Positions 7,346-50,347 of a stretch of 64,000 bases of DNA are shown here, in pieces; position 1 is the first letter of the stretch; each line of letters starts with the position of its first letter. Origin of the DNA: Dehalococcoidia bacterium (GTDB lineage: Bacteria > Chloroflexota > Dehalococcoidia > UBA6926). The stretch spans positions 154,450 through 218,449 of the forward strand of contig CBDEUZ010000007.1 of the NCBI GenBank assembly GCA_965243495.1. The letters run 5' to 3'. Position numbers and translations under genes: made by a program. The notes beneath the pieces were generated by a model. The model ran no database searches. It worked only from the letters and a program-made list of their open reading frames with translations, and was not told where the DNA came from.

Positions 7346-7640
7346 ACCATCATCCCCGTCTTCATCTCGTCATTCCCGCGAAAGCGGAAATCCAGTGCGG
7401 CGCACAGCGCCGTCTCCTCCACTCAGGCTGAAGCCCGCCGCCTCCCCCGTTCGCCCTGAGCTTGTCGAAGGGGGCTCCCGAACGGGGAAATATACCTTCC
7501 CTCATTCCCGCGAAAGCGGGAATCCAGTGCGGCGCACAGCGCCGCCTCCCCCGTTCGCCCTGAGCTTGTCGAAGGGGGCTCCCGAACAGGGGAATATACC
7601 ACCCCTCATTCCACTGCCACGCCGGAACGTCCAGCACGAA
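7346..7640. repeat. Mosaic repeat array with internal tandem duplication of an A+B composite (about 105-125 nt unit x2)
   Basis: Unit 1 at 7371-7496 and unit 2 at 7497-7601 share A (cattcccgcgaaagcgg[g/a]aatccagtgcggcgcacagcgccg) followed by B (ccccgttcgccctgagcttgtcgaagggggctcccgaac). Unit 1 carries a 25-nt extra insert. Confidence 0.85.
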
Positions 7641-16031: not shown

Positions 16032-16035
16032 CCCC

Positions 16036-21112: not shown

Positions 21113-21117
21113 CTGCT

Positions 21118-21165
21118 CCCTACTGTCATTCTGAGCGCAGCGAAGAATCTAAAGACTCATTGCCC
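21118..21165 (+). repeat. Single module C copy (gtcattctgagcgcagcgaagaatctaaagactcattg)
   Basis: Exact family C consensus between guaA and purD. Confidence 0.8.
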
Positions 21166-21199: not shown

Positions 21200-23077
21200 A
21201 TGTTAAAAACAATCCTGCTGCGCGTGACCCTCATGGCGCTTGCCGTCGTGTTCATGCTCATCGGCGTCGTCACCGCCCTTTTCCCGCGACCCGTCATCGA
21301 ACTCCTGGATCTCGGGCAGGTAAATGTCATCCTCCTCGGGATGTGGGGCGCTATGCTCGTTCTGCTCGGCGTCGGCGCATTCCTTGCAAACCGTGACCCC
21401 ATACGACACATCCTTTGGCTGCGGCTCACAATTGGATTCCTCTTTGGCATCGCGCTCTACGCCGGACTCGTGTACTGGGGCGGCGGCATCTCCCGGGACA
21501 CGGCAATCGTCCTAGCCGTCATCGGCATCGTCCCCGGCGTCGGGTTGCTTATCCTCTTCCCGCGCTCCCCGCGTTTCGTTTCCACCCGTGTTCGCTCCCC
21601 CGACGGTGTGCTCTTCACGGACGCGGACGACGGCGGCCTCTTCGTGCGCCGGAGCGGCGGCAGGTTCAACCCCTATGTCATCCGCCTCCCTCGCGAGCCC
21701 GCCATGCCGGACACGCATCACCGCCTCCACCCGACTACGGTCACAAACCCCTCCCGCGTCATGGTCGTCGGCGGCGGCGCGCGAGAACACGCCATCGCCG
21801 TCAAACTCCGGCAGAGCGCCGGACTCGAAGAACTCTACATGGCCCCAGGCAACGGCGGCACGGCATCGATCGCCGAGAATCTCCCCATATCAGCCACCGA
21901 CACCGAAGCCATCGTGCAGGCGGCACAGGAACGAAACGTCGAGCTTGTCATCATCGGCCCCGAAGCTCCGCTGGCCCTCGGCCTCGGCGACGCCGTCCGT
22001 GAGGCCGGTATCCTCTGCCTCGGCCCCTCACAAGAGGCGGCGCGCATTGAGTGGAGCAAGTCTTTCGCCAAGCAGGTCATGGACGACGCCGGAGTTCCCA
22101 CCGCCGCATGGACGAAATTTGACAACTACTCACAGGCCACGGAGTACGTCCGCGCGCACCCCGCTCCCCACGTCATCAAGGCGGACGGCCTCACAGCCGG
22201 AAAGGGCGTTGCCGTCTGCGAAACGGAACAGGATGCCGTCACATTCCTGCACCACGTCATGCGACTCCGCGACTTCGGCGAGTCAGGAGATTCCGTGGTG
22301 ATCGAGGAGACACTGTCGGGCGTCGAACTCTCCGTCTTTGCGTTCTGCGACGGCGAGCAGATGCTGCTCGTTCCCCCCGCCTGCGACTACAAGCGCATCT
22401 ACGACGACGATGAAGGTCCCAACACCGGCGGCATGGGATCATATAGCCCGCCGGAGTTCGTCACGGACAAACTCATGGCGGACATCCGTGACACCATCAT
22501 CCGCCCCGTCCTGCGCCGCATGGTTGAACTCGGCACGCCTTACAGCGGCATCCTTTACGCCGGACTCATGCTCACAGACGATGGCCCCAAGGTCATTGAA
22601 TTCAACTCCCGCATGGGCGACCCCGAGGCTCAGGTCGTCCTGCCCCGTATCACGTCCGATTTCCTGCAGCTCGCCGCCGCAACGGCCGCAGGCAAACTTG
22701 AAGACGTGCATCTTGAGTGGACGCCCCAGCCCGCCGTCGGCATCGCCATCGCTTCCGAGGGCTACCCCGGCGACTACCCAACCGGCCTGGAAATCACCGG
22801 ACTCAACACCCTTGACTACGATGCAATTGCCTTCCATGCCGGCACCCGCCTCGAACCCGCCCCTTCCGCTCACCCTGAGCCTGTCGAAGGGCCCAAACTC
22901 GTAACCGCCGGAGGCCGTGTCCTCACCATCACCGCGCTCGGCGACACGATGGAGCAGGCACGCGAGAAAGCCTACGCGAACGCCGCCCGCGTCCAGTTCC
23001 AGGGCGCGCACTACCGCAAAGACATCGCCCTCCGCGCCGTACCCGCTAAGCCCACCGAAGAACACCCTTCACCCTGA
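21200..23077 (+). CDS. purD: Phosphoribosylamine--glycine ligase with in-frame N-terminal 4-TM membrane extension
   Basis: Residues from MVVGGGAREHAIAV (ATG 21761) to the end are a complete PurD (438 aa). Upstream, the same frame is open back to ATG 21200 and encodes about 120 aa of clear TM helices with coding-like GC3. There is no stop between the two parts. A family B repeat fragment is embedded at 22855-22895 (..AHPEPVEG..). Confidence 0.8.
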   Translation: MLKTILLRVTLMALAVVFMLIGVVTALFPRPVIELLDLGQVNVILLGMWGAMLVLLGVGAFLANRDPIRHILWLRLTIGFLFGIALYAGLVYWGGGISRDTAIVLAVIGIVPGVGLLILFPRSPRFVSTRVRSPDGVLFTDADDGGLFVRRSGGRFNPYVIRLPREPAMPDTHHRLHPTTVTNPSRVMVVGGGAREHAIAVKLRQSAGLEELYMAPGNGGTASIAENLPISATDTEAIVQAAQERNVELVIIGPEAPLALGLGDAVREAGILCLGPSQEAARIEWSKSFAKQVMDDAGVPTAAWTKFDNYSQATEYVRAHPAPHVIKADGLTAGKGVAVCETEQDAVTFLHHVMRLRDFGESGDSVVIEETLSGVELSVFAFCDGEQMLLVPPACDYKRIYDDDEGPNTGGMGSYSPPEFVTDKLMADIRDTIIRPVLRRMVELGTPYSGILYAGLMLTDDGPKVIEFNSRMGDPEAQVVLPRITSDFLQLAAATAAGKLEDVHLEWTPQPAVGIAIASEGYPGDYPTGLEITGLNTLDYDAIAFHAGTRLEPAPSAHPEPVEGPKLVTAGGRVLTITALGDTMEQAREKAYANAARVQFQGAHYRKDIALRAVPAKPTEEHPSP

Positions 23078-23079
23078 AC

Positions 23080-23345
23080 CCATTTGAAAAGTCCCCGTTC
23101 GCCCTGAGCGTAGTCGAAGGGGGCTCTCGAACGGGGAGCCGCTCCCACTCTTACTTCGTCATTCCCGCGAAAGCGGGAATCCAGTACGGCGCGCAGCGCC
23201 GTCTAACTTGTCATTCCGAGCGTAGCCGAGGAATCTAAAGCCTCAATTGACCGCCAAAGCCGGAACGCGGCGGACAAACGCCACAAACCAACCTCACCTG
23301 AACGCGAACTTTGGCCGTAGGCACTGCCTACCCCACCCCCACTAA
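23080..23345. repeat. Mosaic repeat array (B, A, C, E)
   Basis: B at 23095-23140, A at 23155-23205, C at 23208-23250, E (..cgcgaactttggccgtaggcactgcctaccc) at 23255-23335. Confidence 0.85.
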
Positions 23346-28149: not shown

Positions 28150-28520
28150 GAACCTCTCACCCTAACCCCGTCGAAGGACTTTCGTCATTCCCGCGAAAGC
28201 GGGAATCCAGTGCGGCGCGCAGCGCCGTCTAACTTGTCATTCAGAGCGCAGCGAAGAATCTAAGGAGACTCATCTGGCAAGCATGCCGGAACGCGGCTAG
28301 CCGACTGCAGAGGCAAGACAACCCGGAACGCGAACCTTGGCCGTAGGCACTGCCTACCACGTTCGCCCTGAGCCTGTCGAAGGGGGCTCCCGAACGGGGA
28401 CCTAGTCCCGCCTCCCATGTCATTCCGAGCGCAGTCGAGGAATCCAAAGCCTCACCTGTGCCTTCCCCCTCATTCCGAGCGCAGCCGCGTAATCCGAAAT
28501 CGGATTCCTCAGCCCAAACC
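28150..28520. repeat. Mosaic repeat array (A, C, E, B, C, C-variant)
   Basis: A at 28185-28232, C at 28238-28275, E at 28280-28350, B at 28360-28410, C at 28420-28455. A variant C at 28462-28500 has a different internal hairpin (aatccgaaatcggatt). Confidence 0.85.
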
Positions 28521-28552
28521 GTCACGCCGTATGTATTATCATTTCCCTGCTC

Positions 28553-29509
28553 ATGCTCTCCATATGGTGGGACGGCCTTACCCTCAATGCCCTGGCGCTT
28601 CTTCTGGCTGTTGGGTTGGATCGCGTTTTGCCGGAGCCCCCTGCGAGAATCCACCCGGTCGTTTGGATAGGACGCACCATCGCCGCCCTGGAACGCGCGG
28701 CGCCCCGGAGGCCGACGCCTGCATTCATTTATGGGTGCATCATCGTCATCACGGTGACCGTAATTTCGACAGCTTTAGCATGGCTCGCGGTGATTGCGCT
28801 CGCCTCCATACACCCACTGGTTTACGTGACGGGCAGCGCAATAATCCTGCGCACCACCTTTACGGTAAGGGGTCTCTCCTCCGCGGCAAGGCAGACCCGG
28901 GAGGCCCTGCGAGAGGGTCGACTGGAACCGGCGCAGGCCAGCCTGCGTAACTTGGTCAGTCGCGACCCGACAACCCTGACCCCGCCACTGGTGGCTGCAT
29001 CCGCCATAGAGTCCGTGGCTGAGAACACCACGGACAGCTTCGTGGGTCCCTGGCTGGCATTCGCAGTGTTCGGGGTGCCGGGCGCAGTGGCCTATAGAGC
29101 CGTAAACACGCTGGACAGCATGCTGGGATATCGCGGCAGGTATGAGTACCTTGGCAAGGCCTCCGCTCGTCTGGACGACGCCCTCAACTTTGTACCGGCG
29201 CGGCTGAGCGCCCTCTTCCTATTGCTCGGTGGGGCGCTGGGTCGCCTGCCCGTGCGCCGCGCGTGGTTGATCATGCTGAGAGACCGTCAAAGCACCGCCA
29301 GTCCCAACGCAGGGTGGACTATGAGCGTAATGGCAGGGCTCCTGGGAGTACGGCTGGAGAAGCCGGAGCACTACGTCCTCGGCGAGGGCATGCGAGAGCC
29401 AAACACCGAGGACATTGGCGCGGCAATCAGACTCGCTGAGTGGACTGCGATACTGGGAATATTAGCGGCGCTGGGCTTGCTGACGATGAGGCACGCCATC
29501 ATGGGCTAG
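28553..29509 (+). CDS. cbiB: adenosylcobinamide-phosphate synthase CbiB/CobD
   Basis: 318-aa membrane protein with characteristic N-terminus (LLLAVGLDRVLPEPPARIHPVVWIGRTI) and full-length similarity to CobD/CbiB. Confidence 0.85.
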   Translation: MLSIWWDGLTLNALALLLAVGLDRVLPEPPARIHPVVWIGRTIAALERAAPRRPTPAFIYGCIIVITVTVISTALAWLAVIALASIHPLVYVTGSAIILRTTFTVRGLSSAARQTREALREGRLEPAQASLRNLVSRDPTTLTPPLVAASAIESVAENTTDSFVGPWLAFAVFGVPGAVAYRAVNTLDSMLGYRGRYEYLGKASARLDDALNFVPARLSALFLLLGGALGRLPVRRAWLIMLRDRQSTASPNAGWTMSVMAGLLGVRLEKPEHYVLGEGMREPNTEDIGAAIRLAEWTAILGILAALGLLTMRHAIMG

Positions 29510-29516
29510 GGCGAGG

Positions 29517-30584
29517 TTGATGGGGTTGAAAATGATTCATGGGGGTTTGGACGAAGGAGAGTTGCGCTCTCTGGGCCTACGGCCGGAGCGGGTGCTCGAC
29601 TTTAGCGCCAACATCAACCCCTTGGGCCCGTCCCTCGGCGTTAGCCGCGCCGCAGCTCAGGCGAACGTGTCTGCCTACCCGGACCGCCATAGCTTGGCCT
29701 TGCGTGAGGCTCTTGCGGAAAGGCTGGGGGTTGGTATCGACAACCTCATCATCGGTAACGGCTCCACGGAGCTCATCCATCTTCTGGCCCGCGCTTATCT
29801 TGGACCTGGAGTCACGTCCCTGATCTTTGCTCCGACGTTCGGGGAATACGAAACTGCCGCAGCACTGGCCGGAGCCAACGTATGCCACTTTCACGCCGAT
29901 GAGTCTCAGGACTTTCGATGGCCGCTTAATGAAGCGGTAAAGACAATCGAACGGACGCGACCCGCCCTGGTCTTCCTCTGTAATCCCAACAATCCAACAG
30001 GCGTCTATCTGGATCGCAGCGATGTCGAGAAGATTCATGGAGCTTTGAGAGGGGACTCGTTGCTGGTGTTGGACGACGCCTATAGCTCCCTGGCAGATCG
30101 CGCATGGGATCCCATCCCACTGCTCCGCAAAGGCAACATCGCGATATTGCGTTCCATGACAAAGGATCACGCGCTTGCAGGCGTAAGGCTCGGGTACATG
30201 GTCGCCGAGCCTCATGTCATCTCAAGCGTGCGTCGACTTCAACCGGCCTGGAGCGTCAACGCCGTCGCTCAGGCGGCGGGCATTGCCGCGTTGAATGATC
30301 AGCAGCATGTTGCCGCGGCGAGAAAAATCATCGCGGAGGCGAAAGAATATCTTTCGGGTCAGCTTGCAGCATTGGGGATTCCGGTAACCGTCTCTGCCGC
30401 CAATTTCGTGCTTGCAAAAGTGGGGGCGGCATCGGAAGTGCGCCAGGAGCTGCTGCGCCGACACATCGCCGTGCGTGACTGCGCATCCTTCGGTCTTCCC
30501 GAACACATACGCATCGCCGTCCGGCGGCGCGAGGACTGCGACAGGCTCATAGAATCGCTGCGAGAGGTGTTGGGGCATGAGTAG
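29517..30584 (+). CDS. PLP-dependent aminotransferase-fold enzyme, HisC/CobD family (candidate L-threonine-O-3-phosphate decarboxylase)
   Basis: HisC-like class II aminotransferase fold (..LDFSANINPLGPS.., conserved Lys region ..LRSMTKDHALAGVRLGY..). Its position directly after cbiB suggests the CobD decarboxylase role. Confidence 0.7.
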   Translation: MMGLKMIHGGLDEGELRSLGLRPERVLDFSANINPLGPSLGVSRAAAQANVSAYPDRHSLALREALAERLGVGIDNLIIGNGSTELIHLLARAYLGPGVTSLIFAPTFGEYETAAALAGANVCHFHADESQDFRWPLNEAVKTIERTRPALVFLCNPNNPTGVYLDRSDVEKIHGALRGDSLLVLDDAYSSLADRAWDPIPLLRKGNIAILRSMTKDHALAGVRLGYMVAEPHVISSVRRLQPAWSVNAVAQAAGIAALNDQQHVAAARKIIAEAKEYLSGQLAALGIPVTVSAANFVLAKVGAASEVRQELLRRHIAVRDCASFGLPEHIRIAVRRREDCDRLIESLREVLGHE

Positions 30585-31479
30585 TCGCCAACGTGCCGGA
30601 GGCATCGGAGTAGCCTCAGCTCCCGCAACCTGCGGCGAGTTGGCACAAGGAATCCTGGACGGAACGCCGGTCATGGCAACCTGCCCCATCAACATGTTCT
30701 CAACAGTCACCGTCGACCTGGTGAAAGGCTCGGGTCGCGTTCATGGCTCGGCCAACTCTCGTAAAGCCTGCCGCGCCGTGGAGCTGACGCTGGCGCTCAT
30801 GGAACGGACTGACGTGGATGCCCGTCTGAACATTGAGAGCTGCATCCCGCGCAAGAAGGGAATGGCAAGCAGCACCGCGGACATCATTGCAGCCATCGCA
30901 GCGACGGGTGCTGCGCTCGACACTGACATATCGGTCTCCCAGCAAGCCGAGTTGGCCCTTTCCATCGAACCGAGCGACGGGACAATGCTGCCGGGTATTG
31001 CGCTCTTTGATTACAGGCATGGAAGCATCGCGCGATCCCTGGGGCACCCGCCTGGCATGCGAATCCTGGTGTTGGAGTTCGAGGGAGACCTTGACACTGA
31101 ATCATTCAATGCAGTGAACCGGGAGGCTGAACTCCGGGGGCAGTCGCCGCGTCTCCGCGACGCGCTTGAGTTGATCACAGAGGGGTTGGAGTCATGCGAC
31201 GCCGAGGCCGTTGGCCGCGGCGCGACACTGAGCGCCCTGACATACCAGGCGGTGCTCCCCAAGCCGCAACTGCCCACAGTGCTCTCACTTGCACAGGACG
31301 CCGGGGCAGTAGGTGTGAACGTCGCCCATAGCGGTACCGTCATCGGGCTGCTCTTCAGAGACGACTCGGATCGGACAGCATGGGCAGCAACTGAAGCCTC
31401 GAAGCGCCTCCCCAACCTCACAGCGATACACAACTGCAAGCTCATAGGCGGCGGTGTACAACAAACCGTCCCGCGCTAG
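30577..31479 (+). CDS. GHMP kinase family protein (candidate L-threonine kinase, PduX/BluE-like)
   Basis: GHMP motif KGMASSTADIIAAIAA. Overlaps the preceding gene by 8 nt. The functional call rests on its position after cbiB and the decarboxylase. Confidence 0.6.
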   Translation: MSSRQRAGGIGVASAPATCGELAQGILDGTPVMATCPINMFSTVTVDLVKGSGRVHGSANSRKACRAVELTLALMERTDVDARLNIESCIPRKKGMASSTADIIAAIAATGAALDTDISVSQQAELALSIEPSDGTMLPGIALFDYRHGSIARSLGHPPGMRILVLEFEGDLDTESFNAVNREAELRGQSPRLRDALELITEGLESCDAEAVGRGATLSALTYQAVLPKPQLPTVLSLAQDAGAVGVNVAHSGTVIGLLFRDDSDRTAWAATEASKRLPNLTAIHNCKLIGGGVQQTVPR

Positions 31480-31484
31480 GCACG

Positions 31485-32095
31485 CTCTCCCCCATCGTCA
31501 TTCCCGCGAAAGCATGCCCCGTACTCTGATACGGGGCGGCAATGGATTCTCGCCCGCAGGACGGCCTCTTCCGTCATTCCGAGCGCAGTCGAGAAATCCA
31601 AAGGCTCAATAGACCGCCAAAGCGGGAACGCGGTGTGCAACATACACAGGTCATTCAGAGTTCGACCGCGAACCTTGGCTGTAGGCACTGCCTACCCGAG
31701 AGCCGTAGCGCAGCTACCCGTTCGCCCTGAGCCTGTCGAAGGGGGCTCCCGAACGGGGATCTAGCCCCCCTCGTCATTCCCGCTAAAGCATGTCCCGTAC
31801 TTGATACGGGGCGGGAATCCAGTGCGGTCCGTAGGGCAGCCTCTTCTGTCATTCCGAGCGCAGTCGAGGAATCCAAAGACTCATATGGCAAGCATGCTGG
31901 AACGCGGGTGCCAGACTGCACTGGCCAGACGACCCGGAACGCGAACTAAAAGCCGTAGCGCAGCTACCCGTTCGCCCTGAGCCTGTCGAAGGGGGATCCC
32001 GAACGGGGGTCTAGCCCCTCTTCGTCATTCCCGCGAAAGCGGGAATCCAGTGCGGCGCGCAGCGCCGCCCAACCTCACCCCTTTGCTATCATCAC
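31485..32095. repeat. Mosaic repeat array, about 610 nt, the longest in the window (A-variants with nested hairpin, C, E, F, B, A ...)
   Basis: A-variant at 31497-31545 and 31785-31850 carries a second hairpin (atg[c/t]cccgtact[c]tgatacgggg) inserted in the A loop. C at 31562-31600 and 31845-31885, E at 31620-31700, B at 31720-31765 and 31965-32010, A at 32025-32080. Confidence 0.85.
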
Positions 32096-32099
32096 CAAT

Positions 32100-33371
32100 A
32101 TGAAAAAGACGGTCAGCGATATCGACGTGTCCGGCGCGCGATGCCTCGTGCGCGTCGATTTCAACGTTCCGTTCGAACCCGGCACAACCACAATCTCCGA
32201 CGACTCCCGCATCCGCGCCGCCCTACCAACCATCAACTACCTTCGTGAGCGGGGCGCGCGCGTCATCCTCGCAACCCATGTGGGCAGACCAAAGGGCATC
32301 GACGACGGCTTGCGCGTAGCGCCCATGGCCGCACGGCTCTCCGAACTCCTCTCATCGCCCGTCACTGTCGCGCCCGACTCCATCGGCGAGGAAACCGAAA
32401 AGCTCGCCGCCGCGCTCGGCCCCGGTGATGTCCTCTTCCTTGAAAACACGAGGTTCCACCCCGAAGAGGAGAAGAACGCTCCTGATCACTCAGCCGCCCT
32501 CGCCCGTCTTGCGGACTTCTATGTGAACGATGCCTTTGGGTCCGCCCACCGCGCCCACGCCTCCACGGAGGGCGTCGCCCATCTCCTGCCCGCCGTCGCG
32601 GGGTTCCTCCTTGATAAGGAGATCCGCATGTTGGGCGGCATCCTTGAATCGCCCCGCCGTCCGCTGGCAACGCTCATGGGCGGCGCAAAGGTCGGCGACA
32701 AGATGGCCGTCATGGAGCGACTCATCGAGAGCTCGGACATGCTCATCGTCGGCGGTGGCATGGCCGCCGCGTTCCTGGAAGCCCGTGGAATGCGAACCGG
32801 TAAGAGCCTGCTCGAAGCGGACGGCCCGCAGATGGCAGGGCGAATCGAAAGCGCCGCAAGGGCCCGAGGCATCCAACTGCTGATTCCGACGGACGTGATC
32901 GTGGCAACCGAACTCTCCGCCGATGCCCCCGTGTCCGCCGTAAGCAGCGACGCCATCCCTGCAGATGGAATGCTCCTGGACATCGGCCCCGAGACGCGCG
33001 ATACCTACACGCGCGCCTTGCGACTCTGCCAGACAGTACTTTGGAACGGCCCGATGGGTGTATTCGAGTACGACCAATTCGCCGGAGGCACACGCGCTAT
33101 CGCCGAATGCCTCGCCCAACACGCCGGCGCTCCCACCTCCCTTCGTCATTCCCGCGAAAGCGGGAATCCAGTGCGGCGCGCAGCGCCGCCACCTTCTCAC
33201 GCCCCACACGGCGCAACCGTCGTCGTTGGCGGCGGCTCGACGGCTGAGGCCGTCGACGCCCTCGGATATGCCGACGCCATGACCCATGTGTCCACCGGCG
33301 GCGGCGCGGCCCTCGAATTCCTTGAAGGCCGTGTCCTCCCCGGCATCGCCGCCCTCCAGGACATGGACTGA
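32100..33371 (+). CDS. pgk: phosphoglycerate kinase carrying an in-frame repeat-element insertion
   Basis: Full-length PGK (..VRVDFNVP.., ..VWNGPMGVFE.., ..GGGSTAEAV..STGGGAALEFLEG..). Between ..ECLAQHAGA and TVVVGGG, 27 extra residues (PTSLRHSRESGNPVRRAAPPPSHAPHG) are encoded by an exact copy of repeat module A at 33143-33189. Confidence 0.9.
   Translation: MKKTVSDIDVSGARCLVRVDFNVPFEPGTTTISDDSRIRAALPTINYLRERGARVILATHVGRPKGIDDGLRVAPMAARLSELLSSPVTVAPDSIGEETEKLAAALGPGDVLFLENTRFHPEEEKNAPDHSAALARLADFYVNDAFGSAHRAHASTEGVAHLLPAVAGFLLDKEIRMLGGILESPRRPLATLMGGAKVGDKMAVMERLIESSDMLIVGGGMAAAFLEARGMRTGKSLLEADGPQMAGRIESAARARGIQLLIPTDVIVATELSADAPVSAVSSDAIPADGMLLDIGPETRDTYTRALRLCQTVLWNGPMGVFEYDQFAGGTRAIAECLAQHAGAPTSLRHSRESGNPVRRAAPPPSHAPHGATVVVGGGSTAEAVDALGYADAMTHVSTGGGAALEFLEGRVLPGIAALQDMD
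33143..33189 (+). repeat. Module A copy inside the pgk coding frame
   Basis: cgtcattcccgcgaaagcgggaatccagtgcggcgcgcagcgccgcc is identical to the intergenic copy at 32035-32080. Total inserted length keeps the frame open. Confidence 0.9.
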
Positions 33372-34140
33372 ACTTTTCTCTGCCATTCCAAGCGCAACTA
33401 AAGGGTCCCCGTTCGGGAGCCCCCTCGTCATTCCCGCGAAAGCGGGAATCCAGTGCGGCGCGTAGCGCCGCCATTAATCCCCTCTCCCTGAGGGGGAGGG
33501 TTAGGGTGGGGGTGACTCCCCCGTCATTCCGAGCGCAGCCGAGGAATCCAAAGACTCCACAGACCGCCAAAACCGGAACGCGGCACACCAAACCCAACGA
33601 CGACCCTCCCCGGCATCGCCGCCCTCCAGGACGCGGACTAGTCCCCGTTCGCCCTGAGCCTGTCGAAGGGGGCTCCCGAACGGGGAACCAACATCCCCTC
33701 CCCCTCGTCATTCCCGCGAAAGCGGGAATCCAGTGCGGCGCGCTGCGCCGCCATTAATCCCCTCTCCCTCAGGGAGAGGGTTAGGGTGAGGGGGGCTGTA
33801 ATTCCGAGCGCCCTTACTGTCATTCCGAGCGCAGTCGAGGAATCCAAAGCCTCAATAGACCGCCAGAGCAGGAACGCGCATCCGAACCCAACGGCCGCCC
33901 GCACCGGAACGTGAACTTTGGCCGTAGCGCAGCTACCGAGAGCCGTAACGCAGTTACCCCGTTCGCCCTGAGCTTGTCGAAGGGGGCTCCCGAACGGGGA
34001 CCTAGCTCCCCTTCGTCATTCCGGCGCAGGCCGGAATCCACCCCGTGGCCCGTAGGGCCACAACACTCTCCTGCAAACCTTTGTGCTATTCTCAAATTCG
34101 GTGTACAGCGGCATCAAGAGTACAAAGGAATAATTTGAGG
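33372..34140. repeat. Mosaic repeat array (A, D, C, E, B, A, D, C, E, F, B, A-variant)
   Basis: Two successive composite blocks A-D-C-E at about 33420-33600 and 33705-33900, then F+B at 33911-34005 and an A-variant (cgtcattccggcgcaggccggaatcc) at 34015-34045. The D copies contain (G3N3)3G3 tracts. Confidence 0.85.
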
Positions 34141-35196
34141 ATGGAAACCTTTGACGAAGTAATACGGGCAGCGCTGGAGGCAGCCCGGCAGCGTGAAGGC
34201 TATATCGGCCCGCTTGAGGACTTTACGATTGCCCTTGCTAGCAGAGACTGGCAGGAGAGAGACCCCGTTATTGAAGGAATACTCACCGACATCAGGGCTG
34301 GCTCACAAGAACCTCTGACACTATGGCATGCACAGCATCATGGTGTTGAGGACACGATTCTCCAGAAGTGGAACGAACCCCTGCGACTTCTTGATCTCCT
34401 GATTGTCCTTGCTGGGCAATTCGGCACAGATTTCTACAGGGAACGCATAGCAACAGTGGAAGACGGTGGTGAGCGTTTACTGCTCACGGTGCTCACTGAG
34501 CTACACGCCAGAGCTTGCCAAATATCCTCCGCTATACATCTGCTGCTGCGTTCAGGATATGCGGATGACGCTCACGCGCGATGGCGCACACTGCACGAGA
34601 TTTCAGTAATAGCCAATTTTGTGAAGGACGGCGGGGCATCACTTGCTGAAAGATACCAAGAGCATGGAACCATACAGCGGTGCAAGGAATTACGTGCATT
34701 CCGTGAACGTAGTCAGTTATTCGGGAACGAGCCGGAATGGACTGTTGCTGACCATTGGTTCGAGGAACGCTATGAATTGCTTATACAAAAGTATGGCTCG
34801 TCCTTCAAGGAGGACTACGGCTGGGCTGCGGATGCACTCGGCAAGAAGAAGCCAACTTTCAGAGACATTGAGAATAACGTGAAGATAGCCGATACAGTGC
34901 CTATGGCGCTGATGCGCGCGCAATACAGGATGGCAAGCGCAAATGTTCATGCATCCGCACACGGCACTCAATTTCGGTTAGGACTGGGTAAGCATAGTAG
35001 CACTGGAATCCTGTTTGGCCCTAGTATTCAAGGTCTAGGTGACCCAGGGTTTGCGACTGCAAATGCTCTTTGTGAAACGGCACTTACGCTTCTTCAGACA
35101 AGATCGAATGAAGACGATGTCGTGCGCATCTCGATACTGACGAATCTCACCGAGACAACTTCGAACGTATTCCTCACAACGCCGGACGATGATTAG
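34141..35196 (+). CDS. Hypothetical protein (351 aa), lower-GC, first gene of the two-gene island
   Basis: RBS GAGG before ATG 34141. No recognisable catalytic family from sequence. It contains an R-x4-H stretch (RWRTLHE), weakly reminiscent of HEPN-type motifs. GC is about 52% against about 65% in flanking DNA. Confidence 0.55.
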   Translation: METFDEVIRAALEAARQREGYIGPLEDFTIALASRDWQERDPVIEGILTDIRAGSQEPLTLWHAQHHGVEDTILQKWNEPLRLLDLLIVLAGQFGTDFYRERIATVEDGGERLLLTVLTELHARACQISSAIHLLLRSGYADDAHARWRTLHEISVIANFVKDGGASLAERYQEHGTIQRCKELRAFRERSQLFGNEPEWTVADHWFEERYELLIQKYGSSFKEDYGWAADALGKKKPTFRDIENNVKIADTVPMALMRAQYRMASANVHASAHGTQFRLGLGKHSSTGILFGPSIQGLGDPGFATANALCETALTLLQTRSNEDDVVRISILTNLTETTSNVFLTTPDDD

Positions 35197-35240
35197 GCTG
35201 GTAACCGTCCTGAACTTGTCCATGAAAGAGGCAGCACCCT

Positions 35241-36884
35241 ATGACGACCGACTGGAAAAACAAACTCTACTTCGGCGATAACCTCCCCATCATGCGGGAG
35301 CACATCCCGGACGAGTCCGTCGATCTCATCTACCTCGATCCGCCCTTCAACTCCAACGCCACCTACAACGTCCTCTTCCGCGAGCACGATTCCTCGGAGT
35401 CCGCCGCCCAGATTCAGGCATTCGACGATACCTGGCACTGGAGCACGGACGCCGAATGGCATTACCAGCAGGTCGTCACCACCGGCCCGCGAAAACTCGC
35501 GGACATGCTTGGGGCCATGCGCACATTCCTCGGCCAGAACGACATGATGGCCTACCTCACCATGATGGCCCCGCGCATGGTGGAACTGCACCGCGTCCTC
35601 AAGCCCACCGGCAGCATCTACCTCCATTGCGACCCCACCGCCAGCCACTACCTCAAGCTCCTCATGGACGCCGTGTTCGGGCCGACAAGGTTCAGGAACG
35701 AAATCACGTGGAAACGCTCTCATCCCAAGGGATTAGCATTCACTCGCTTCGCATCAAACCATGACGTGATTTTGGTGTACGGCTCCACCAGCGATGCCAC
35801 CTGGAATGCAATGTATACGGAGAACCCTCGCGCCCACGAGCAATACAACCTCATTGAAGAAGGCACAGGACGTAGATACCAGTTGACCAGTCTATTGAAT
35901 CCAAATCCAGATCGCCCAAACCTGACATACGAATTCAAGGGCGTAACGAGAGTATGGCGATGGACAAAAGAACGCATGGAACAAGCTGATAAAGACGGGC
36001 TAATCGTTGTTCCGCGTGAGGGACAAGGGGTTCCGAGACTGAAGAGGTATCTTGATAAACAGGAAGGGATTCCAGTAGGCGACACTTGGGATGACATCCC
36101 AATTGCGGCTGGCAAAGAGCGCCTCGGCTATCCCACCCAGAAGCCCGAGGCCCTGCTTGAACGCATCATCTCCGCCTCCAGCAACGAGGGCGATGTCATC
36201 CTCGACCCCTTCTGCGGCTGCGGCACCGCCGTCGCCGTCGCGGAACGCCTGAACCGCAAGTGGATCGGCATCGACGTCACCCATCTCGCCATCTCCCTCA
36301 TGCGCAGCCGCCTGCGTGACTCGTTCGGCGATGACCTGTCCGACTATGAGGTCGTCGGCTCCCCCGCGGACGCGGAGAGCGCCCGCGCACTGTCGCTTGA
36401 GGGCGGCAACACCGGCCGATACCAGTTCGAATACTGGGCGCTCGGCCTGGTTGAGGCCCGCCCTGCCCGCGACATGAAGAGGGGCGCGGACGCCGGTATC
36501 GACGGCTACATCAACTTCTTTGACGACAACTCCGGCAAAGCCAAGTCCGTCATCGTCCAGGTCAAGAGCGGTAACGTGGGCCGCAACGTCATCGCCACCC
36601 TGAAGGGCGACATGGAACGCGAAAACGCCGAAATGTCTCTGCTGATCACCTTGCGTCCGCCCACCAAACCGATGCTTGATGAGGCTGCGTCCGCCGGATT
36701 CTACACGCCGGAGGCCTACCCGGACCGACAATTTCCCCGCGTCCAGATCGCCACCATTGAGGACATCCTCAACGGCAACGGCCCCGCGATACCCCAACTC
36801 GGCCTCTCCCAACCCCCGACCTTCCGCCGCGCCCCCCGCCGCCGCCGAACAGACTCCACATCCCCCCGCATGAACATCGGCTAG
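35241..36884 (+). CDS. Beta-class N6-adenine/N4-cytosine DNA methyltransferase fused to a C-terminal Mrr-like (PD-(D/E)xK) nuclease-type domain
   Basis: Motif IV LIYLDPPFNS near the N-terminus, motif I/X ..GYPTQKPEALLERII..VILDPFCGCGTAV.. after a central target-recognition region (beta-class order). The C-terminal approximately 190 aa carry ..DAGIDGYINFF..SVIVQVKSGNVGRNVIATLKG..LLITL.., matching the Mrr catalytic-domain pattern. The central TRD segment (about 35700-36110) is about 48% GC while both flanks are about 65%. Confidence 0.8.
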   Translation: MTTDWKNKLYFGDNLPIMREHIPDESVDLIYLDPPFNSNATYNVLFREHDSSESAAQIQAFDDTWHWSTDAEWHYQQVVTTGPRKLADMLGAMRTFLGQNDMMAYLTMMAPRMVELHRVLKPTGSIYLHCDPTASHYLKLLMDAVFGPTRFRNEITWKRSHPKGLAFTRFASNHDVILVYGSTSDATWNAMYTENPRAHEQYNLIEEGTGRRYQLTSLLNPNPDRPNLTYEFKGVTRVWRWTKERMEQADKDGLIVVPREGQGVPRLKRYLDKQEGIPVGDTWDDIPIAAGKERLGYPTQKPEALLERIISASSNEGDVILDPFCGCGTAVAVAERLNRKWIGIDVTHLAISLMRSRLRDSFGDDLSDYEVVGSPADAESARALSLEGGNTGRYQFEYWALGLVEARPARDMKRGADAGIDGYINFFDDNSGKAKSVIVQVKSGNVGRNVIATLKGDMERENAEMSLLITLRPPTKPMLDEAASAGFYTPEAYPDRQFPRVQIATIEDILNGNGPAIPQLGLSQPPTFRRAPRRRRTDSTSPRMNIG

Positions 36885-37277
36885 CCCTGCCCACCCTGAG
36901 CCTGTCGAAAGGCCTTCCACTTCCCGTTCGCCCTGAGCCTGTCGAAGGGGGCTCCCGAACGGGTACCTAGCCCCCTCGTCATTCCCGCGAAAGCGGGAAT
37001 CCAGTGCGGCGCGCAGCGCCGCCTCTCATGTCATTCCGAGCACAGCCGAGGAATCTAAAGACTCCACAGACCGCCAAAGCCGGAACGCGACACACCAGCC
37101 TCACGCACAAATCGACGCTGATCGCGAGCTATGGTTGTAGGCACTGCCTACCCGCCCAAAGCCGGAACGCGGCACACCAAACCCACGAACCGTTCTCGCC
37201 GGAACGTGAACTTTGGCCGTAGCGCAGCTACCCGAGAGCCGTAACGCAGTTACCCCCGCTATACTGTCCACACGCAT
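36885..37277. repeat. Mosaic repeat array (B-partial, B, A, C, E, E, F)
   Basis: B fragments at 36895-36965, A at 36975-37020, C at 37025-37065, E at 37065-37200, F (gaactttggccgtagcgcagctacccgagagccgtaacgcagttacccc) at 37198-37255. The F copy is a direct repeat of 33905-33961 on the other side of the island. Confidence 0.85.
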
Positions 37278-38495
37278 ATGGCCGACTTTGAACTGATCAA
37301 GAGCCTCGCCCGCAAGACGGACACAAAGGTCGTCCTGCTTGTCATGGACGGCTTGGGTGGCATTCCACACCCAAAGACACTGCGCACCGAACTGGAGGTT
37401 GCCGAGAAGGATAATCTCGATCGCCTCGCGCGCTCCTCACAGACCGGCCTGTCCATCCCCGTCGCGCACGGCATCACGCCCGGCAGTGGACCTGGCCACC
37501 TTGCCCTCTTCGGGTATGACCCCATCAAGTACCTCATCGGCCGTGGCATCCTTGAAGCTCTTGGGTTGGACATGGATGTCCGCGACGGAGACGTTGCCGC
37601 CCGAGGAAACTTCTGCACCATCGGCGAAGACGGCACCATTACCGACCGCCGCGCCGGGCGCATCGCAACCGATCTCAACCGTGAGCTGACCGAGCAGCTG
37701 AATGCCATCTCCGTCGAAAATGCGCAGCCCATCATCGCCTCGGGCCGCGAGCATCGCTTTGCCCTGCTTTTTCGACCGGAGGACGGAGGCCCCCAGCTCA
37801 GCGATGCCCTGACGGACAGTGACCCCCAAAGAGAAGGTTTGGCTCCCTTAGCGGTCACCCCAACTGAGCCATGGGCGGATAACACCGCCAACATTGTGAA
37901 TTCCTTCCTTAGGGCTGCAATGTCCGTTATTGCCGACGCCCACCCCGCAAACGGCCTTGTTCTACGCGGTTTTGCGACAATACCGGACCTCCCGCAAATG
38001 TCGGACGTTTACGCCCTGAATCCTGCCGCAATCGCCGCCTATCCAATGTACCGGGGCCTCGCGCAGCTGGTGGGCATGAACGTCGTGCCAACCGGCGAAA
38101 CATTCGAAGACGAAATCCAAACCGCCCGAGACATCTGGGACGATCACGACTTCTTTTTCATCCACTACAAGTACACGGACAGCACCGGCGAGGACGGCGA
38201 CTACGATGCTAAGGTAGCCGCCATCGAGCAGCTGGATCGCGCCCTGCCCGCCCTGCTGGACCTGGATCCTGATGTGTTGATCGTGGCGGGGGATCATTCA
38301 ACTCCCAGCGCCATGGCCGCCCACAGCTGGCACCCGGTTCCCGTGATGATTCGGTCGCGGCACATTGCTGCCGGCTTTTCGGAGGCGTTCACGGAACGGG
38401 AATGCGCGAAGGGAATGCTGGGAACCATGGCGGCAACAGACATCATGCCGATAGCCCTCGCAAATGCCGGGAAACTGGACAAATTCGGCGCTTAG
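37278..38495 (+). CDS. apgM: 2,3-bisphosphoglycerate-independent phosphoglycerate mutase, archaeal type
   Basis: 405 aa with ..VVLLVMDGLGG.. N-terminus and ..LIVAGDHSTPS.. metal-binding region characteristic of ApgM-type iPGM. Confidence 0.85.
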   Translation: MADFELIKSLARKTDTKVVLLVMDGLGGIPHPKTLRTELEVAEKDNLDRLARSSQTGLSIPVAHGITPGSGPGHLALFGYDPIKYLIGRGILEALGLDMDVRDGDVAARGNFCTIGEDGTITDRRAGRIATDLNRELTEQLNAISVENAQPIIASGREHRFALLFRPEDGGPQLSDALTDSDPQREGLAPLAVTPTEPWADNTANIVNSFLRAAMSVIADAHPANGLVLRGFATIPDLPQMSDVYALNPAAIAAYPMYRGLAQLVGMNVVPTGETFEDEIQTARDIWDDHDFFFIHYKYTDSTGEDGDYDAKVAAIEQLDRALPALLDLDPDVLIVAGDHSTPSAMAAHSWHPVPVMIRSRHIAAGFSEAFTERECAKGMLGTMAATDIMPIALANAGKLDKFGA

Positions 38496-41439: not shown

Positions 41440-42315
41440 ATGAACTTCACAAAGATGCACGGTACAGGCAACGACTTCATTGTTGTCGAAGGCGGTTCTG
41501 CTGAGGCCGATTCCACGAATTGGCCGAAGGTCGCGCGGGAGGCGTGCAGCCGCCGATTCGGCGTGGGCGCGGACGGAATCCTTGTCATTCGCCCCTCAGA
41601 TGACGCCGCCCTGCGCATGCAAATCTTCAACCCGGACGGCTCCGAGGCGGAGATGTGCGGCAACGGCATCCGCTGCGTCACCAAATACGCCATCGAGCGC
41701 GGTGTTGTCGACAGCTCGGCGCTCCGCAACGAGGCCGGTCTGCCAATCGAGACCCTTGGCGGGCTGATGACTGTTTGGCCACAGAACGGAAGCGTGGGCG
41801 GAGCCATCGAGGCCGTTCGCGTCGGAATGGGCGCGCCGATACTTCAACCCCGTGAAATCCCCGTCGCCGTGGATGGTCCGGGACCTGTACAGGGCCACGC
41901 GCTAGAGATAGGCGGCTATGCCCTGAACCTTTCCTTTGTTTCCATGGGGAATCCCCACGCCGTCGCATTCATCGACACGCCGGTTGCGGACTTCCCGCTC
42001 GAGACCATCGGGCCGATGGTGGAGAATCACTCCCTGTTCCCAGAGCGCGTCAACTTTGAGATTGTCAATGTCCAGTCTCGCGAAGAGATAACCATGCGTG
42101 TGTGGGAGCGTGGCGCGGGCCTCACCATGGCGTGCGGCACAGGCGCTTGCGCCACGGTTGTCGCGGCGCGTATCGCCGGTTTCGTGGATGATTGCGTGTC
42201 AGTGGAGTTGCCGGGTGGATCGCTCACCATCGAGTGGGACGGCAACCCGGACAGCCAGGTCTACATGACCGGCCCCGCCACAACGGTCTACGCCGGCCAG
42301 TTGCTCACGAGCTAG
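41440..42315 (+). CDS. dapF: diaminopimelate epimerase
   Basis: MNFTKMHGTGNDFIVV.., active-site Cys motifs ..EMCGNGIRC.. and ..MACGTGACA.. The ORF track start at 41239 overlaps miaA. Confidence 0.85.
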   Translation: MNFTKMHGTGNDFIVVEGGSAEADSTNWPKVAREACSRRFGVGADGILVIRPSDDAALRMQIFNPDGSEAEMCGNGIRCVTKYAIERGVVDSSALRNEAGLPIETLGGLMTVWPQNGSVGGAIEAVRVGMGAPILQPREIPVAVDGPGPVQGHALEIGGYALNLSFVSMGNPHAVAFIDTPVADFPLETIGPMVENHSLFPERVNFEIVNVQSREEITMRVWERGAGLTMACGTGACATVVAARIAGFVDDCVSVELPGGSLTIEWDGNPDSQVYMTGPATTVYAGQLLTS

Positions 42316-43588
42316 AGCGCTCTCCGGTTCCGGTTTCGGCGGTAGTTCCTGATTCGACGTACGTTTGCCGGAGGCGGGCAGGTAGCTGCGGCCGCTTCAT
42401 CGTCATATACATGTACAGCGAGATAATGGCCATCATCCCGAGCGCGAAGAATGCCCAACGGTAGCCGTCAGCGCCGAATTCGTCATACATGAAACCGGCG
42501 AAGACGGGAGCAAAGATCCCTCCGAGCGCCGTGAAAGTAAATTGAAGTCCTAGCAACTGCCCGTACACCTGGCGTCCAAAGAGTTCGCCCAGGAGAGCAG
42601 ACCGCGGCGGGTTGCCGAGGCCGAACCCGAATCCAAAGAACACTGCAAAGAGCACGGCGGTAATCGGATCCCGCGCCAGGAAGAGCAGCACTGCGCCGAT
42701 TATCTGCATCGTGAACGAGATCGAGACAATCTTACGCTTGTCATACATATCGGCAAGAATGCCGCCCAGGATACGAGCCGGGAAACTGGAGAGCGGGAGG
42801 AGTGTCACTAGAAACGTGACCCACCCTGTAGAAAAACCAAACGACTCCCACAACACAAACTGGTGAATGATGAACGAGCCGAAGAAGATGAACCCGAAAA
42901 TGTTCGCCACAACGTACTTCCAGTACGTCGTCGTTCTAATCGCTTCCTTTACCGTGAACGTCGTATCGGAGTAGCGCTCGTCCGTGTCCATTTCCGCGTG
43001 TCGAGCGGCCTCCTCATCGCTCATGCCATCCGGCCTCAGCCCGTACTTCTCGGGAGCGTCACGCATCATGAGGCCGAGCGGCAGCCCGACGACAAACGTC
43101 GCTATCCCGAGATAGAACAGCGCATCTCTCCACGCGAAGAGGGCGATCAGGCCCACGACGAGCGGCACAATCAGGGCACTCACTCCCGCTCCGTAGGACA
43201 CGATGGCCATGGCAGTGCCACGCCGACGGATGAACCAGGCGTTGACGGCGGTGTTGACGGTAAGGAAGGAGCCGAATGCGAGGCCAAGGGCCATCACTGC
43301 AAAGGCCGCAAAGAATTGCCAGAGCTCCTGCACGAAACTCAACCCAATGAATCCACAGCCGAGAATAAACATCCCGCCAAGGACGGACTTTCTGGGCCCA
43401 AATCGATCGACGACGTATCCAACCAGGGGCCCGAAGATGCCCTGCTCCATGCGCTGAAACGCAAAGGCGATGGAGGCCACGCCCGCCGGCCACCCAAACT
43501 CGTCAAGAATTTCCGCAAAGAACGGCGAGAAGCCGTAGAAGAACACACCGGCTGTGTAAAAGAGGACGCCGAAACTGGCAATCGCCAA
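42305..43588 (-). CDS. MFS transporter (OFA-like)
   Basis: 12 TM with MFS motifs; N-terminal region similar to the four upstream paralogs. Confidence 0.8.
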   Translation of the reverse strand: MAIASFGVLFYTAGVFFYGFSPFFAEILDEFGWPAGVASIAFAFQRMEQGIFGPLVGYVVDRFGPRKSVLGGMFILGCGFIGLSFVQELWQFFAAFAVMALGLAFGSFLTVNTAVNAWFIRRRGTAMAIVSYGAGVSALIVPLVVGLIALFAWRDALFYLGIATFVVGLPLGLMMRDAPEKYGLRPDGMSDEEAARHAEMDTDERYSDTTFTVKEAIRTTTYWKYVVANIFGFIFFGSFIIHQFVLWESFGFSTGWVTFLVTLLPLSSFPARILGGILADMYDKRKIVSISFTMQIIGAVLLFLARDPITAVLFAVFFGFGFGLGNPPRSALLGELFGRQVYGQLLGLQFTFTALGGIFAPVFAGFMYDEFGADGYRWAFFALGMMAIISLYMYMTMKRPQLPARLRQTYVESGTTAETGTGERSSS

Positions 43589-43745
43589 CCACCAGCCGTA
43601 GAAAACGCGGTTGGGGTGGATCAGAACCGATAATGCAGCGTTTACGGCGACCTCCCAACAAAAACCAAAGCCCGCGAACGGGCGGATTGAATAAGTATAG
43701 CCCCGCTACGCTATCGGGCGGGCATTTCCTATGTAACCAGTCTGA

Positions 43746-49043: not shown

Positions 49044-49165
49044 GCCCCATGCTAGGCGCGGGCGTATCCCAAACACAAACATAAGGTGGCAGTCAGAAGG
49101 ATTGCTACAATAGGTTTCAGCGCGCAGTTCACTCGTCAAACCAGATACAGAGGAGACCCAGCCAA

Positions 49166-50347
49166 ATGCCCCTACCTGAGCAGGCACGTCGCGTCGCGCA
49201 GCTACCCCCGTACCTCTTTGTGGAGGTCACACGCAAGATCAACGAGAAGCGCGCCCGCGGCGAGGACGTCATCTCGCTCGCCATCGGCGACCCTGACCTG
49301 CCCTCCGCCCCGCACGTCATCAGCGCGCTCGTCACATCACTGGAGGATGTAGCCAACCACCGCTACCCGGAATCCGACGGCCTGCCGGCCTTCAGGCGCT
49401 CAGTCGCCGACTGGTACAAGAAGCGGTTTGGTGTGGAGTTTGATCCCGATACAGAAGTCCTGCCCACCATCGGCTCGAAGGAAGGCATCGCCCACATCGC
49501 ATGGTGTTACATCGACCAGGGAGACATCGCGCTGGTGCCGGACCCCGGCTACCCCGTCTACAGTGTCGGCACCATGCTGGCTGGGGGCGAGTCGTACTAC
49601 ATGCCGCTCCACCGGGAGACAGGCTTCCTGCCAGACCTTGATGCCATCCCTGAGGACGTGGCCCGGAAAGCCAAGCTCCTATGGATCAACTACCCCAACA
49701 ACCCGACGGCTGCGGTGGCCGAGCTGGATTTCTATGAGCGGGTCGTCGAGTTCGCCAAGAAGTACGATATCGTCGTCTGTCACGACGGCCCCTACACAGA
49801 GGTCGCTTTTGACGGATACAAACCCGTGAGCTTCATGCAGGTGGACGGGGCAAAGGATGTGGGCATTGAGTTCCACTCACTGTCCAAGTCGTACAACATG
49901 ACAGGCTGGCGAATCGGCATGACCGTCGGCAACGCGGAGGTCACCAACGCGCTGATGCGTATCAAGTCCAACGTGGACTCCGGCGTGTTCCAGGCCGTGC
50001 AGTTGGCAGGGATCGCTGCGATTGAGGGACCGCAGGACATCATCGACCACCACAACGCCGTCTACCAGGCAAGGCGAGACAAGCTTATCCCTGCCCTGCG
50101 CAAGATGGGCCTCGAGGTCGATCCTCCCAAGGCGAGCCTCTACGTCTGGGCTAAACTGCCGGATGGTGTCTTATCCGGCGACTTCGCGTCACGCCTCATC
50201 GAAGAGGCGAACGTCGTTGTGACGCCCGGCCGCGGCTACGGCGAGGCGGGCGAGGGATATATCCGCTGCTCACTGACCGTCAGTGACGACGCCCTTGATC
50301 GCGCGCTGGAGCGGCTAAGCAACGTCAACATCTCTGATCTTGTCTAG
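49166..50347 (+). CDS. Class I/II PLP aminotransferase, LL-diaminopimelate aminotransferase-like
   Basis: ..[34 protein letters not shown].. pattern typical of DapL-type enzymes. PLP Lys region ..[14 protein letters not shown].. dapF lies 7 kb upstream. Confidence 0.75.

Follow-up and report, generated by a model that had tools for sequence, protein, structure and literature searches.

CGTC-tagged repetitive extragenic palindromes (REPs) are short units in which a CGTC tag precedes a stem of 8-9 bp, the first pairs of which are A-T, with a loop of 4-5 nt and a tail fitting CCA, and with TGTC or CCTC allowed as variants of the tag (Di Nocera et al. 2013, PMC3733652). Family CGTC-1, which has an 8-bp stem and a 4-nt loop, includes dRS3 of Neisseria and RPE-6 of Rickettsia conorii (PMC3733652). 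Such repeats have been reported in Proteobacteria, Chlorobi, Bacteroidetes, Spirochaetes and Thermotogae, and Chloroflexi are not among the phyla named (PMC3733652); no description of CGTC REPs in Chloroflexi or in pgk was found in the literature. The subject here is a repeat of this type from a 64-kb window (the whole stretch of DNA analysed, 64,000 nucleotides from a Dehalococcoidia bacterium of the Chloroflexota), where it lies in frame within pgk, the gene for the glycolytic enzyme phosphoglycerate kinase (PGK).

In-frame palindromic repeats are already known. Insertions of CGTC REPs and of Rickettsia palindromic elements (RPEs; Ogata et al. 2000, 2002; reviewed in PMC10969869) into reading frames are documented elsewhere (PMC3733652, PMC10969869), as are intragenic GTAG REPs, and it is Chloroflexota and pgk that are new as hosts. 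The pgk insert resembles an RPE in being a palindromic repeat in frame within a housekeeping gene, and RPE peptides have been judged compatible with fold and function (PMC10969869). However, RPE-1 is about 100-150 bp long, has a conserved peptide reading and is restricted to Rickettsia, whereas the core of the present element measures about 47-60 nt, its host is a member of the Dehalococcoidia (free-living or symbiotic), and different Dehalococcoidia relatives read the same element in different frames. By analogy, then, the insert would work like an RPE, and given its Dehalococcoidia host it is not classed as a member of the RPE family. The first-pass annotation of the window had drawn the parallel with Rickettsia, which turned out closer than claimed, since the hairpin fits CGTC-1, the family of both RPE-6 and dRS3.

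Four further comparisons place the element. With the CGTC-1 REPs it shares the tag, the 8-bp stem beginning A-T/T-A, the 4-nt loop, the CCA tail, the absence of a known associated transposase, and a mostly intergenic distribution downstream of genes with occasional in-frame intragenic copies; it differs in that the window units are single and co-oriented, each followed by a second, different hairpin. The arrays of Neisseria intergenic mosaic elements (NIMEs) combine dRS3, a 20-bp inverted repeat of the form ATTCCC-N8-GGGAAT, with RS elements, and Bentley et al. (2007, PMC1797815) state that they are absent outside Neisseria; the core of the window unit, ATTCCCGCGAAAGCGGGAAT, fits the dRS3 consensus. 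The GTAG-tagged REPs of E. coli and Pseudomonas, with their bacterial interspersed mosaic elements and REP-associated tyrosine transposases (RAYTs), are likewise short GC-rich hairpin repeats in intergenic mosaics, but the window units carry no GTAG tag and are co-oriented rather than arranged in inverted pairs, and neither a Y1 transposase domain nor a RAYT gene was found in the window. Finally, MITEs (miniature transposable elements with inverted repeats) that lie in frame, such as the Coxiella QMITE and the Anabaena MITEs (PMC5896051, PMC10969869), are also non-autonomous and can extend open reading frames (ORFs), but a MITE is bounded by terminal inverted repeats and comes with a short target-site duplication of fixed length, whereas here there are two internal hairpins, no terminal inverted repeats, and imperfect duplications of variable length.

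The insert and the gene that carries it

A 78-nt segment of the window's pgk is probably a two-hairpin repeat that was inserted as a selfish or neutral element and is tolerated in frame by a functional gene. A CGTC-1 type REP unit with a second small hairpin would have been inserted into the coding sequence; the insert would persist because a surface loop tolerates extra residues, and only versions that are in frame and free of stop codons would survive selection. The features concerned are the following.

32100..33371, + strand: pgk ORF, 423 aa, intact and insert-bearing (ORF list, phmmer against PDB, Foldseek, dN/dS)
33120..33131, + strand: left target remnant CAC GCC GGC GCT, homologous to CAC GCC CGC GCG of empty alleles
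33132..33209, + strand: net insertion of 78 nt or 26 codons, residues 345-370 (PTSLRHSRESGNPVRRAAPPPSHAPH), from codon-level comparison with empty and extended alleles
33144..33170, + strand: CGTC-1 REP unit, with tag CGTC (33144-33147), stem ATTCCCGC (33148-33155), loop GAAA (33156-33159), stem GCGGGAAT (33160-33167) and tail CCA (33168-33170)
33173..33189, + strand: second hairpin, GCGGCGC, loop GCA, GCGCCGC (7-bp stem, 3-nt loop)
33198..33218, + strand: diverged second target start (CAC GCC CCA CAC, within the insert) and target remainder GGC GCA ACC

The 47-nt module cgtcattcccgcgaaagcgggaatccagtgcggcgcgcagcgccgcc lies at 33144-33190 on the + strand, within the pgk ORF, and matches intergenic copies at 47 of 47 positions, with 0 matches expected in shuffled sequences. 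The 78-nt insert contains no stop codon and the pgk frame stays open across it; both the exact intragenic copy and the open frame had been noticed at first pass, and both are borne out. The bounds of the insert were set against the empty alleles L150, L152, L002, L004, L151 and L003 and the extended allele L153. Most relatives at 85-93% amino acid identity have a PGK of 397-398 aa with an uninterrupted LAQ(H/Y)AR(A/G)G(A/T)TV, as an alignment of orthologues proposed at first pass was meant to reveal, and their DNA at the empty site reads CAA CAC GCS CGC GCG followed directly by GGC GCW ACC, the window's 78 nt sitting between the two. The in-frame extension is thus real, and the earlier figure of about 27 added residues becomes a net 26 relative to insert-free orthologues. 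The segment 33198-33218 possibly reflects an imperfect 12-nt target duplication (CACGCC at 33120 and again at 33198), a reading left ambiguous by a target that is GC-rich and of low complexity.

The product is a full-length PGK. Its top match among PDB sequences is 1php (phmmer, E = 1e-127), aligned in two stretches (query 2-340 and 375-421 to 3-340 and 347-393 of 1php) between which about 34 query residues stand opposite 6 residues of 1php. An AlphaFold2 (AF2) model with a mean predicted local distance difference test score (pLDDT) of 81.6 has the normal PGK fold, and Foldseek retrieved 1php with this model (E = 1e-48), with TM scores of 0.80-0.87 to PGK structures. The nearest PGK relatives come from metagenome-assembled genomes of uncultured Dehalococcoidia (Chloroflexota). 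An identical protein, P0145, is encoded on a 1.98-Mb NCBI contig, and the same insert is present in L001, an independent 432-kb assembly whose pgk has 89.7% nucleotide identity to that of the window. Outside the insert, the window and L001 genes differ with dS 0.435, dN 0.025 and dN/dS 0.059, and 105 of the 131 differences fall at third codon positions. Because both genes carry the insert and dN/dS is low, the sequences imply strong purifying selection on the insert-bearing enzyme, which would hence be functional.

Where does the extra peptide lie in the protein? In the AF2 model, residues 344-368 are the sole long segment with pLDDT < 50 and form a coil between helix 329-342 and strand 373-377. 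This strand ends in the GGGST nucleotide-binding motif and the insert enters at its N-terminal end, in agreement with the first-pass placement between a helix and the GGGS/D strand. Judging from fold topology, the entry point would be the edge away from the ligand in the Rossmann-like domain. The insert is probably translated as a 26-residue Pro/Arg/Ser-rich extension of a surface loop, predicted to be disordered. Intein, intron and terminator readings of the segment were rejected: it is only 78 nt long, the length of every allele is divisible by 3, the hairpins are not followed by a T-tract, and no terminator-like site was found in the insert.

The repeat family could be defined from 12 CGTC-tagged hairpin units in the window, counting variants at 938, 12596 and 34014. 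The tag is CGTC in 11 units, the pgk copy included, and CCTC in one; the 8-bp stem ATTCCCGC/GCGGGAAT has 8 of 8 pairs in 11 of the 12; the 4-nt loop is GAAA in 11 and GCAG in the other; and the CCA tail is present in all save the copy at 938, which has CTG. By sequence, then, the first half of the module conforms to the unit definition of the CGTC-1 family, each feature being found in 11-12 of the 12 units. The head-to-head dimers that predominate in published CGTC families, an organisational tendency rather than part of the unit definition (PMC3733652), do not occur, as all 12 units are single and on the same strand. When a 99-nt context of the pgk copy is folded, exactly these two hairpins form, at -37.4 kcal/mol (z = -3.05) for RNA and -22.7 kcal/mol (z = -2.86) for DNA. 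Among 14 distinct units from the window and relatives, positions 1-3 of the first stem are invariant (AT, TA, TA) and position 6 shows a compensated CG/GC exchange (8:6), while the second stem has compensatory changes at position 2 (CG/TA, 8:6) and position 6 (GC/CG, 7:7), as well as at positions 1 and 3. These pairs were counted by script and not from a MAFFT alignment, which misaligned hairpin 2 across subfamilies.

Alleles at the same loop in related lineages

Homologue searches, cluster look-ups and DNA retrieval yielded at least eight in-frame alleles at the same pgk codons across related lineages, all with insert lengths that are multiples of three. The alleles of L153 and L154 were assigned to proteins P0144 and P0141, respectively.

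Window, P0145 and L001: +26 aa; CGTC-1 unit and second hairpin
L081: +23 aa; CCTC-ATTCCGGC subfamily (intergenic in L003 and L082 too), with the window's right junction, read in another frame (LIPAKAGIH)
L154 (P0141), 2001-3284: +30 aa; module A and the CCGTTCGCCCTGAGCCTGTCGAAGGG module (module C, translated RPEPVEG), with degraded, mismatched hairpins
L153 (P0144), 2001-3323: +43 aa; module A and the CCGTTCGCCCTGAGCCTGTCGAAGGG module (RPEPVEG), a small mosaic array translated in PGK
L083 and L155: +31 and +32 aa; ATTCCGGC/GTGGCCC subfamily, as in the window's intergenic copy at 34014
L082, P0148 and P0147: +20, +20 and +23 aa; clean 28-nt target duplication (27/28) around a unique 32-nt filler, no CGTC unit

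A PGK tree from which the columns of the insert had been removed sorts the insert types into three groups. The window-type clade has a bootstrap of 99/200 and the L082-type clade of 171/200, while L083-type alleles are interleaved with insert-free sequences (monophyly 5/200); presence and absence of an insert also alternate among PGK sequences that are at least 90% identical. Because of these clades and this interleaving, the sequences point to at least three separate insertion or duplication events at the loop, together with secondary accretion, replacement and possibly precise loss. The loop is probably a recurrent hotspot, both because it would be structurally permissive and because its quasi-palindromic codons CAC GCS CGC GCG GGC GC may be favoured by hairpin-seeking repeats. 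Alternatively, a single insertion in the ancestor of the clade could have been followed by repeated precise loss and by replacement of the interior. The right junction CCTTCTCACNCCCCACACGG that L081 has in common with the window despite a different interior would suit such a history, as would the interleaving of the L083/L155-type alleles and the insert-free P0149, whose HAHAGATV matches what precedes the insert in L155 on its left side and is what excision between short direct repeats should leave behind. Nevertheless, the three allele classes differ in junctions and contents: the window type consists of CCCRCCTCCCTT and a CGTC unit, the L083 type of a 36-nt unique leader and a CGTC unit, and the L082 type of the clean 28-nt duplication with no CGTC unit. 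Many precise losses would also be needed, and a single ancient event is on balance rather unlikely. No further copy of the L082 32-nt filler, of the L083 36-nt leader or of the window junctions was found among the loci available.

Selection appears, from the sequences, to act only on frame and on the absence of stop codons and not on the peptide, since the alleles encode unrelated peptides and use more than one frame of the same DNA; the decaying hairpins of L154 fit weak constraint. Of the earlier suggestion that the insert is tolerated and perhaps selected, the first half is much better supported than the second, since relatives hold an unrelated peptide, a hairpin in another frame or nothing at this site. 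A recent mobilisation, also suggested at first pass, does not agree with an insertion that predates the split from L001, at a pgk dS of about 0.43. Nor was an ancient loop with the same peptide on unrelated nucleotides encountered: L001 shares 68 identical nt with the window, the whole module included (33130-33197).

Several observations weigh against an insert that is merely selfish or neutral. A neutral loop would not be expected to show the 68-nt identity (P about 4e-4 by permutation with codon positions preserved), given the divergence of the rest of the gene, and the identity could reflect nucleic-acid constraint or gene conversion rather than neutrality. Within the insert, the window and L001 differ by 1 synonymous and 5 nonsynonymous changes, all at its edges. 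The surface location of the loop and its distance from the active site are read from the AF2 confidence profile and from the topology of the fold. The idea that the insertion site is the most stable single-stranded DNA hairpin of pgk was put to a test: in its empty form this site, GC-rich and quasi-palindromic, ranks among the top 0.3-21% most stable single-stranded DNA windows in eight empty pgk genes (the rank varies with genome and window size), which is suggestive only. Lastly, Pfam searches of about 55 ORFs in the 64-kb window revealed no domain of a transposase or recombinase, in line with published work that gives CGTC REPs no dedicated transposase (PMC3733652).

It is possible that the intragenic hairpins are kept for a function as nucleic acid, with the peptide as a by-product. 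A dRS3-type recombinase could bind them or recombine at them, they could serve as a hotspot of allele exchange as proposed for NIMEs, or, folded in the mRNA, they could modulate the translation or stability of pgk. Beside the 68-nt identity of the element core, such a function would be in keeping with the covariation of both hairpins across subfamilies (L081 has a compensated CCCGC/GCGGG to CCGGC/GCCGG version), with the common orientation of all 23 CGTC units in the window and 12 related loci, and with arrays of units that border variable gene cassettes, as those of NIMEs do. However, close relatives live without any insert, the L154 hairpins are mismatched, and the L082-type alleles lack a CGTC hairpin altogether. 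The covariation speaks for constraint on the family and not on the pgk copy itself. Moreover, the window and L001 genes have identical runs of 95 and 68 nt elsewhere in pgk, so that patches of recombination or gene conversion explain the identity as well as selection on the hairpins does. Nucleic-acid function is thus improbable, more so than a single ancient insertion. The nucleotide conservation of the insert had also been considered as proof of function, a candidate argument weakened by these two other runs of at least 68 nt.

An adaptive peptide, for example a new interaction or regulatory loop kept by selection on the protein, is very unlikely. The insert has indeed been kept since before the window and L001 separated, and several lineages retain 20-43 aa at the loop, but the peptides found there (RHSRESGNP, LIPAKAGIH, ATAGDAARSAG, RPEPVEG) are unrelated, more than one frame of the same DNA is in use, nonsynonymous changes outnumber synonymous ones within the insert (5 versus 1), the segment is a predicted coil of low AF2 confidence, and presence and absence alternate among closely similar sequences. 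An assembly artefact or pseudogene, in the form of a repeat-induced chimaera, is scarcely credible: multi-copy repeats are classic sites of misassembly and the sequence is of the metagenome-assembled type, but both flanks are collinear pgk, the identical P0145 and the same insert in L001 come from separate long contigs, five further independent assemblies hold in-frame variants, and dN/dS is 0.06.

With the tolerated insertion as the preferred reading, the range of in-frame "selfish DNA in genes" would reach beyond Rickettsia and a few proteobacteria and take in Chloroflexota and a central enzyme of glycolysis. One PGK surface loop would accept 20-43 extra residues of unrelated sequence, a property of use to protein engineers, and annotators should be aware that such inserts can resemble frameshifts or misassemblies. 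At this locus, filled alleles can moreover be matched with empty ones, for a repeat family about whose way of spreading the literature has left the question open. Its added value lies in the new phylum and gene, in the recurrent hotspot and in NIME-like arrays with a near-identical dRS3 core in Dehalococcoidia.

Repeat arrays, junctions and mobility

Allowing up to 3 mismatches, the 47-nt module occurs at 9 places in the window (the pgk copy and 8 others), all on the + strand, with none expected. The first-pass count of more than 15 intergenic copies was too high; for the 26-nt head of the module, 15 copies are reached only if truncated ones of 71-85% identity are counted. The hairpin core occurs 11 times. 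The other full copies and the variant unit that matches alleles of relatives are as follows.

7368..7546, + strand: two module copies, 7368-7414 (3 mismatches) and 7500-7546 (2 mismatches)
23157..23203, + strand: module copy with 2 mismatches, one compensated in hairpin 2
28183..28229, + strand: module copy with 1 mismatch
32023..32069, + strand: identical module (0 mismatches), 30 nt upstream of the pgk start codon
33426..33472, + strand: module with 1 mismatch, just downstream of pgk
33706..33752, + strand: module copy with 1 mismatch
34014..34063, + strand: variant unit CGTC-ATTCCGGC-GCAG-GCCGGAAT-CCA with hairpin GTGGCCC-GTA-GGGCCAC, the subfamily found inside pgk of L083 and L155
36977..37023, + strand: identical module (0 mismatches), upstream of apgM

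All 12 CGTC units of the window lie in its first 37 kb and none at 37-64 kb, and units were seen in all related loci. Eleven of the 12 are downstream of a + strand gene or a tRNA; most genes are on the + strand, and GC skew is negative throughout the window but weak. An Rfam search at gathering threshold returned three tRNAs only, and the repeats match no known RNA family.

In arrays 0.3-0.8 kb long, the units alternate with other repeat modules, of which there are at least three (B, C and D).

28150-28550, 31480-32100, 33372-34140 and 36885-37278: mosaic repeat arrays of CGTC units and modules B, C and D

As in NIMEs, several modules alternate in these arrays, the arrays vary between close relatives, and they border variable genes. 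One variable segment (28553-31479) holds cobD, aminotransferase and GHMP kinase genes; another (34141-36884), between pgk and apgM-tpiA, holds a DUF5677 gene and an N6_N4 methyltransferase-Mrr fusion (N6_N4_Mtase-Mrr_cat), whereas pgk adjoins apgM-tpiA in L003, L005, L006, L081, L151 and L152. Array modules turn over extensively between L083 and L151, whose pgk genes are 92% identical. Two differences from NIMEs stand out. The available text of PMC1797815 describes no NIME counterpart of a translated intragenic mini-array such as that of L153 (modules A and C, +43 aa), and the dedicated recombinase of dRS3, an IS110-like integrase of filamentous phages, has no counterpart in the window, where neither a dRS3-integrating phage nor an IS110-like recombinase was seen.

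Downstream of pgk in L082, the 5' end of apgM occurs twice (4456-4777 and 6898-7254), flanking a cassette with an AAA_15/AAA_21 ATPase and an HNH nuclease. This repeat has the form of a long target duplication around a defence-like insertion, and L083 has an AbiJ_NTD4 gene at that place.

The junctions of the repeats show imperfect target direct repeats of variable length (about 4, 10, 12, 28 and 37 nt). The junction repeat of L155 is about 10 nt long (CRCGCAGGCG), and in L153 GGCG is repeated around the second module. The longest case is at the end of the window's own pgk.

33335..33641, + strand: duplication of the pgk 3' end, the last 37 nt (33335-33371) being repeated at 33605-33641 (33/37 identical) around a 233-nt repeat block (33372-33604)

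The downstream copy encodes LPGIAALQDAD*, and the duplication is seen only in the window, being absent from the 12 related loci (13 loci compared). The sequence therefore suggests that a second repeat insertion hit the last 12 codons of pgk and that the duplication preserved the ORF.

Some CGTC units are interrupted in or beside the loop by a smaller palindrome (ATGCCCCGTAC..GATACGGGGC), in the window at 31495-31545 and 31771-31830, in L001 at about 4272-4345 and in L083 at about 4448-4502. This nesting of small palindromes in the loops of CGTC hairpins suggests that the repeats tend to insert into hairpin-forming DNA.

Taken together, it is conceivable, with a minor chance only, that repeats of the CGTC/dRS3 type are still mobile in this clade of Dehalococcoidia, that they prefer short GC-rich quasi-palindromes, and that they leave variable target duplications of about 4-37 nt. 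If so, the variable duplications would point away from a classical transposase and towards template switching during replication or a recombinase still to be discovered. The PGK loop, with at least three independent filled alleles and matching empty ones, would then be a natural before-and-after series on CGTC REP movement, and NIME-like recombination arrays, including a translated mini-array in an essential gene, would exist far outside Neisseria.

Units in other bacteria and further genes of the window

A 50-nt query matched Neisseria gonorrhoeae sequences at 34 of 35 positions, in at least 40 places per record, with further matches in Azospirillum, Sphingopyxis (annotated inside ileS), Legionella and others. 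The exact 27-mer is present in 64 IMG/VR contigs. A metagenome scan with the exact 36-nt pattern gave 2 contigs, L084 (4042-4077) and L085 (828-863), in each of which the copy is intergenic and the gene context proteobacterium-like (gshB/xerC-like neighbours); the unit with the start of hairpin 2 is thus not confined to Dehalococcoidia. Since the hairpin unit is nearly identical in Dehalococcoidia and Neisseria, one may ask what keeps it conserved across phyla. When the 30-aa insert peptide was used for an exhaustive HMMER search, 12 matches came back, all of them spurious ORFs through REP arrays of other bacteria.

In the viral or prophage contig L143 (IMG/VR UViG 3300010345_001156), a unit at 1849 lies within an opposite-strand ORF for a 936-aa Prim-Pol + D5_N protein, which has the CGTC-1 unit in frame (…LDSRFRGNDE…) in its inter-domain linker. 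The Sphingopyxis match, in Sphingopyxis indica (NZ_CP076395.1, 32547-32581, a plasmid match), is a 91%-identical CGTC unit under the feature annotated as ileS (isoleucine-tRNA ligase) and may, from its annotated place, be another intragenic copy in an essential gene.

The window has some further peculiarities. The purD ORF (21200-23077) has its GARS_N domain from residue 186, with about 185 extra N-terminal codons that start right after the repeat at 21117-21158, and is probably over-extended at the N terminus. At 12909-17538, two long ORFs of 1040 and 689 aa overlap (15469-16031) and have no Pfam match; this is the stretch of lowest GC content in the window (0.568), and a repeat array (12498-12822) precedes it. 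Finally, five consecutive MFS transporter genes occupy 42308-49187 on the - strand, and two of these share about 72% DNA identity (repeat families D13 and D14, 43781-45821).

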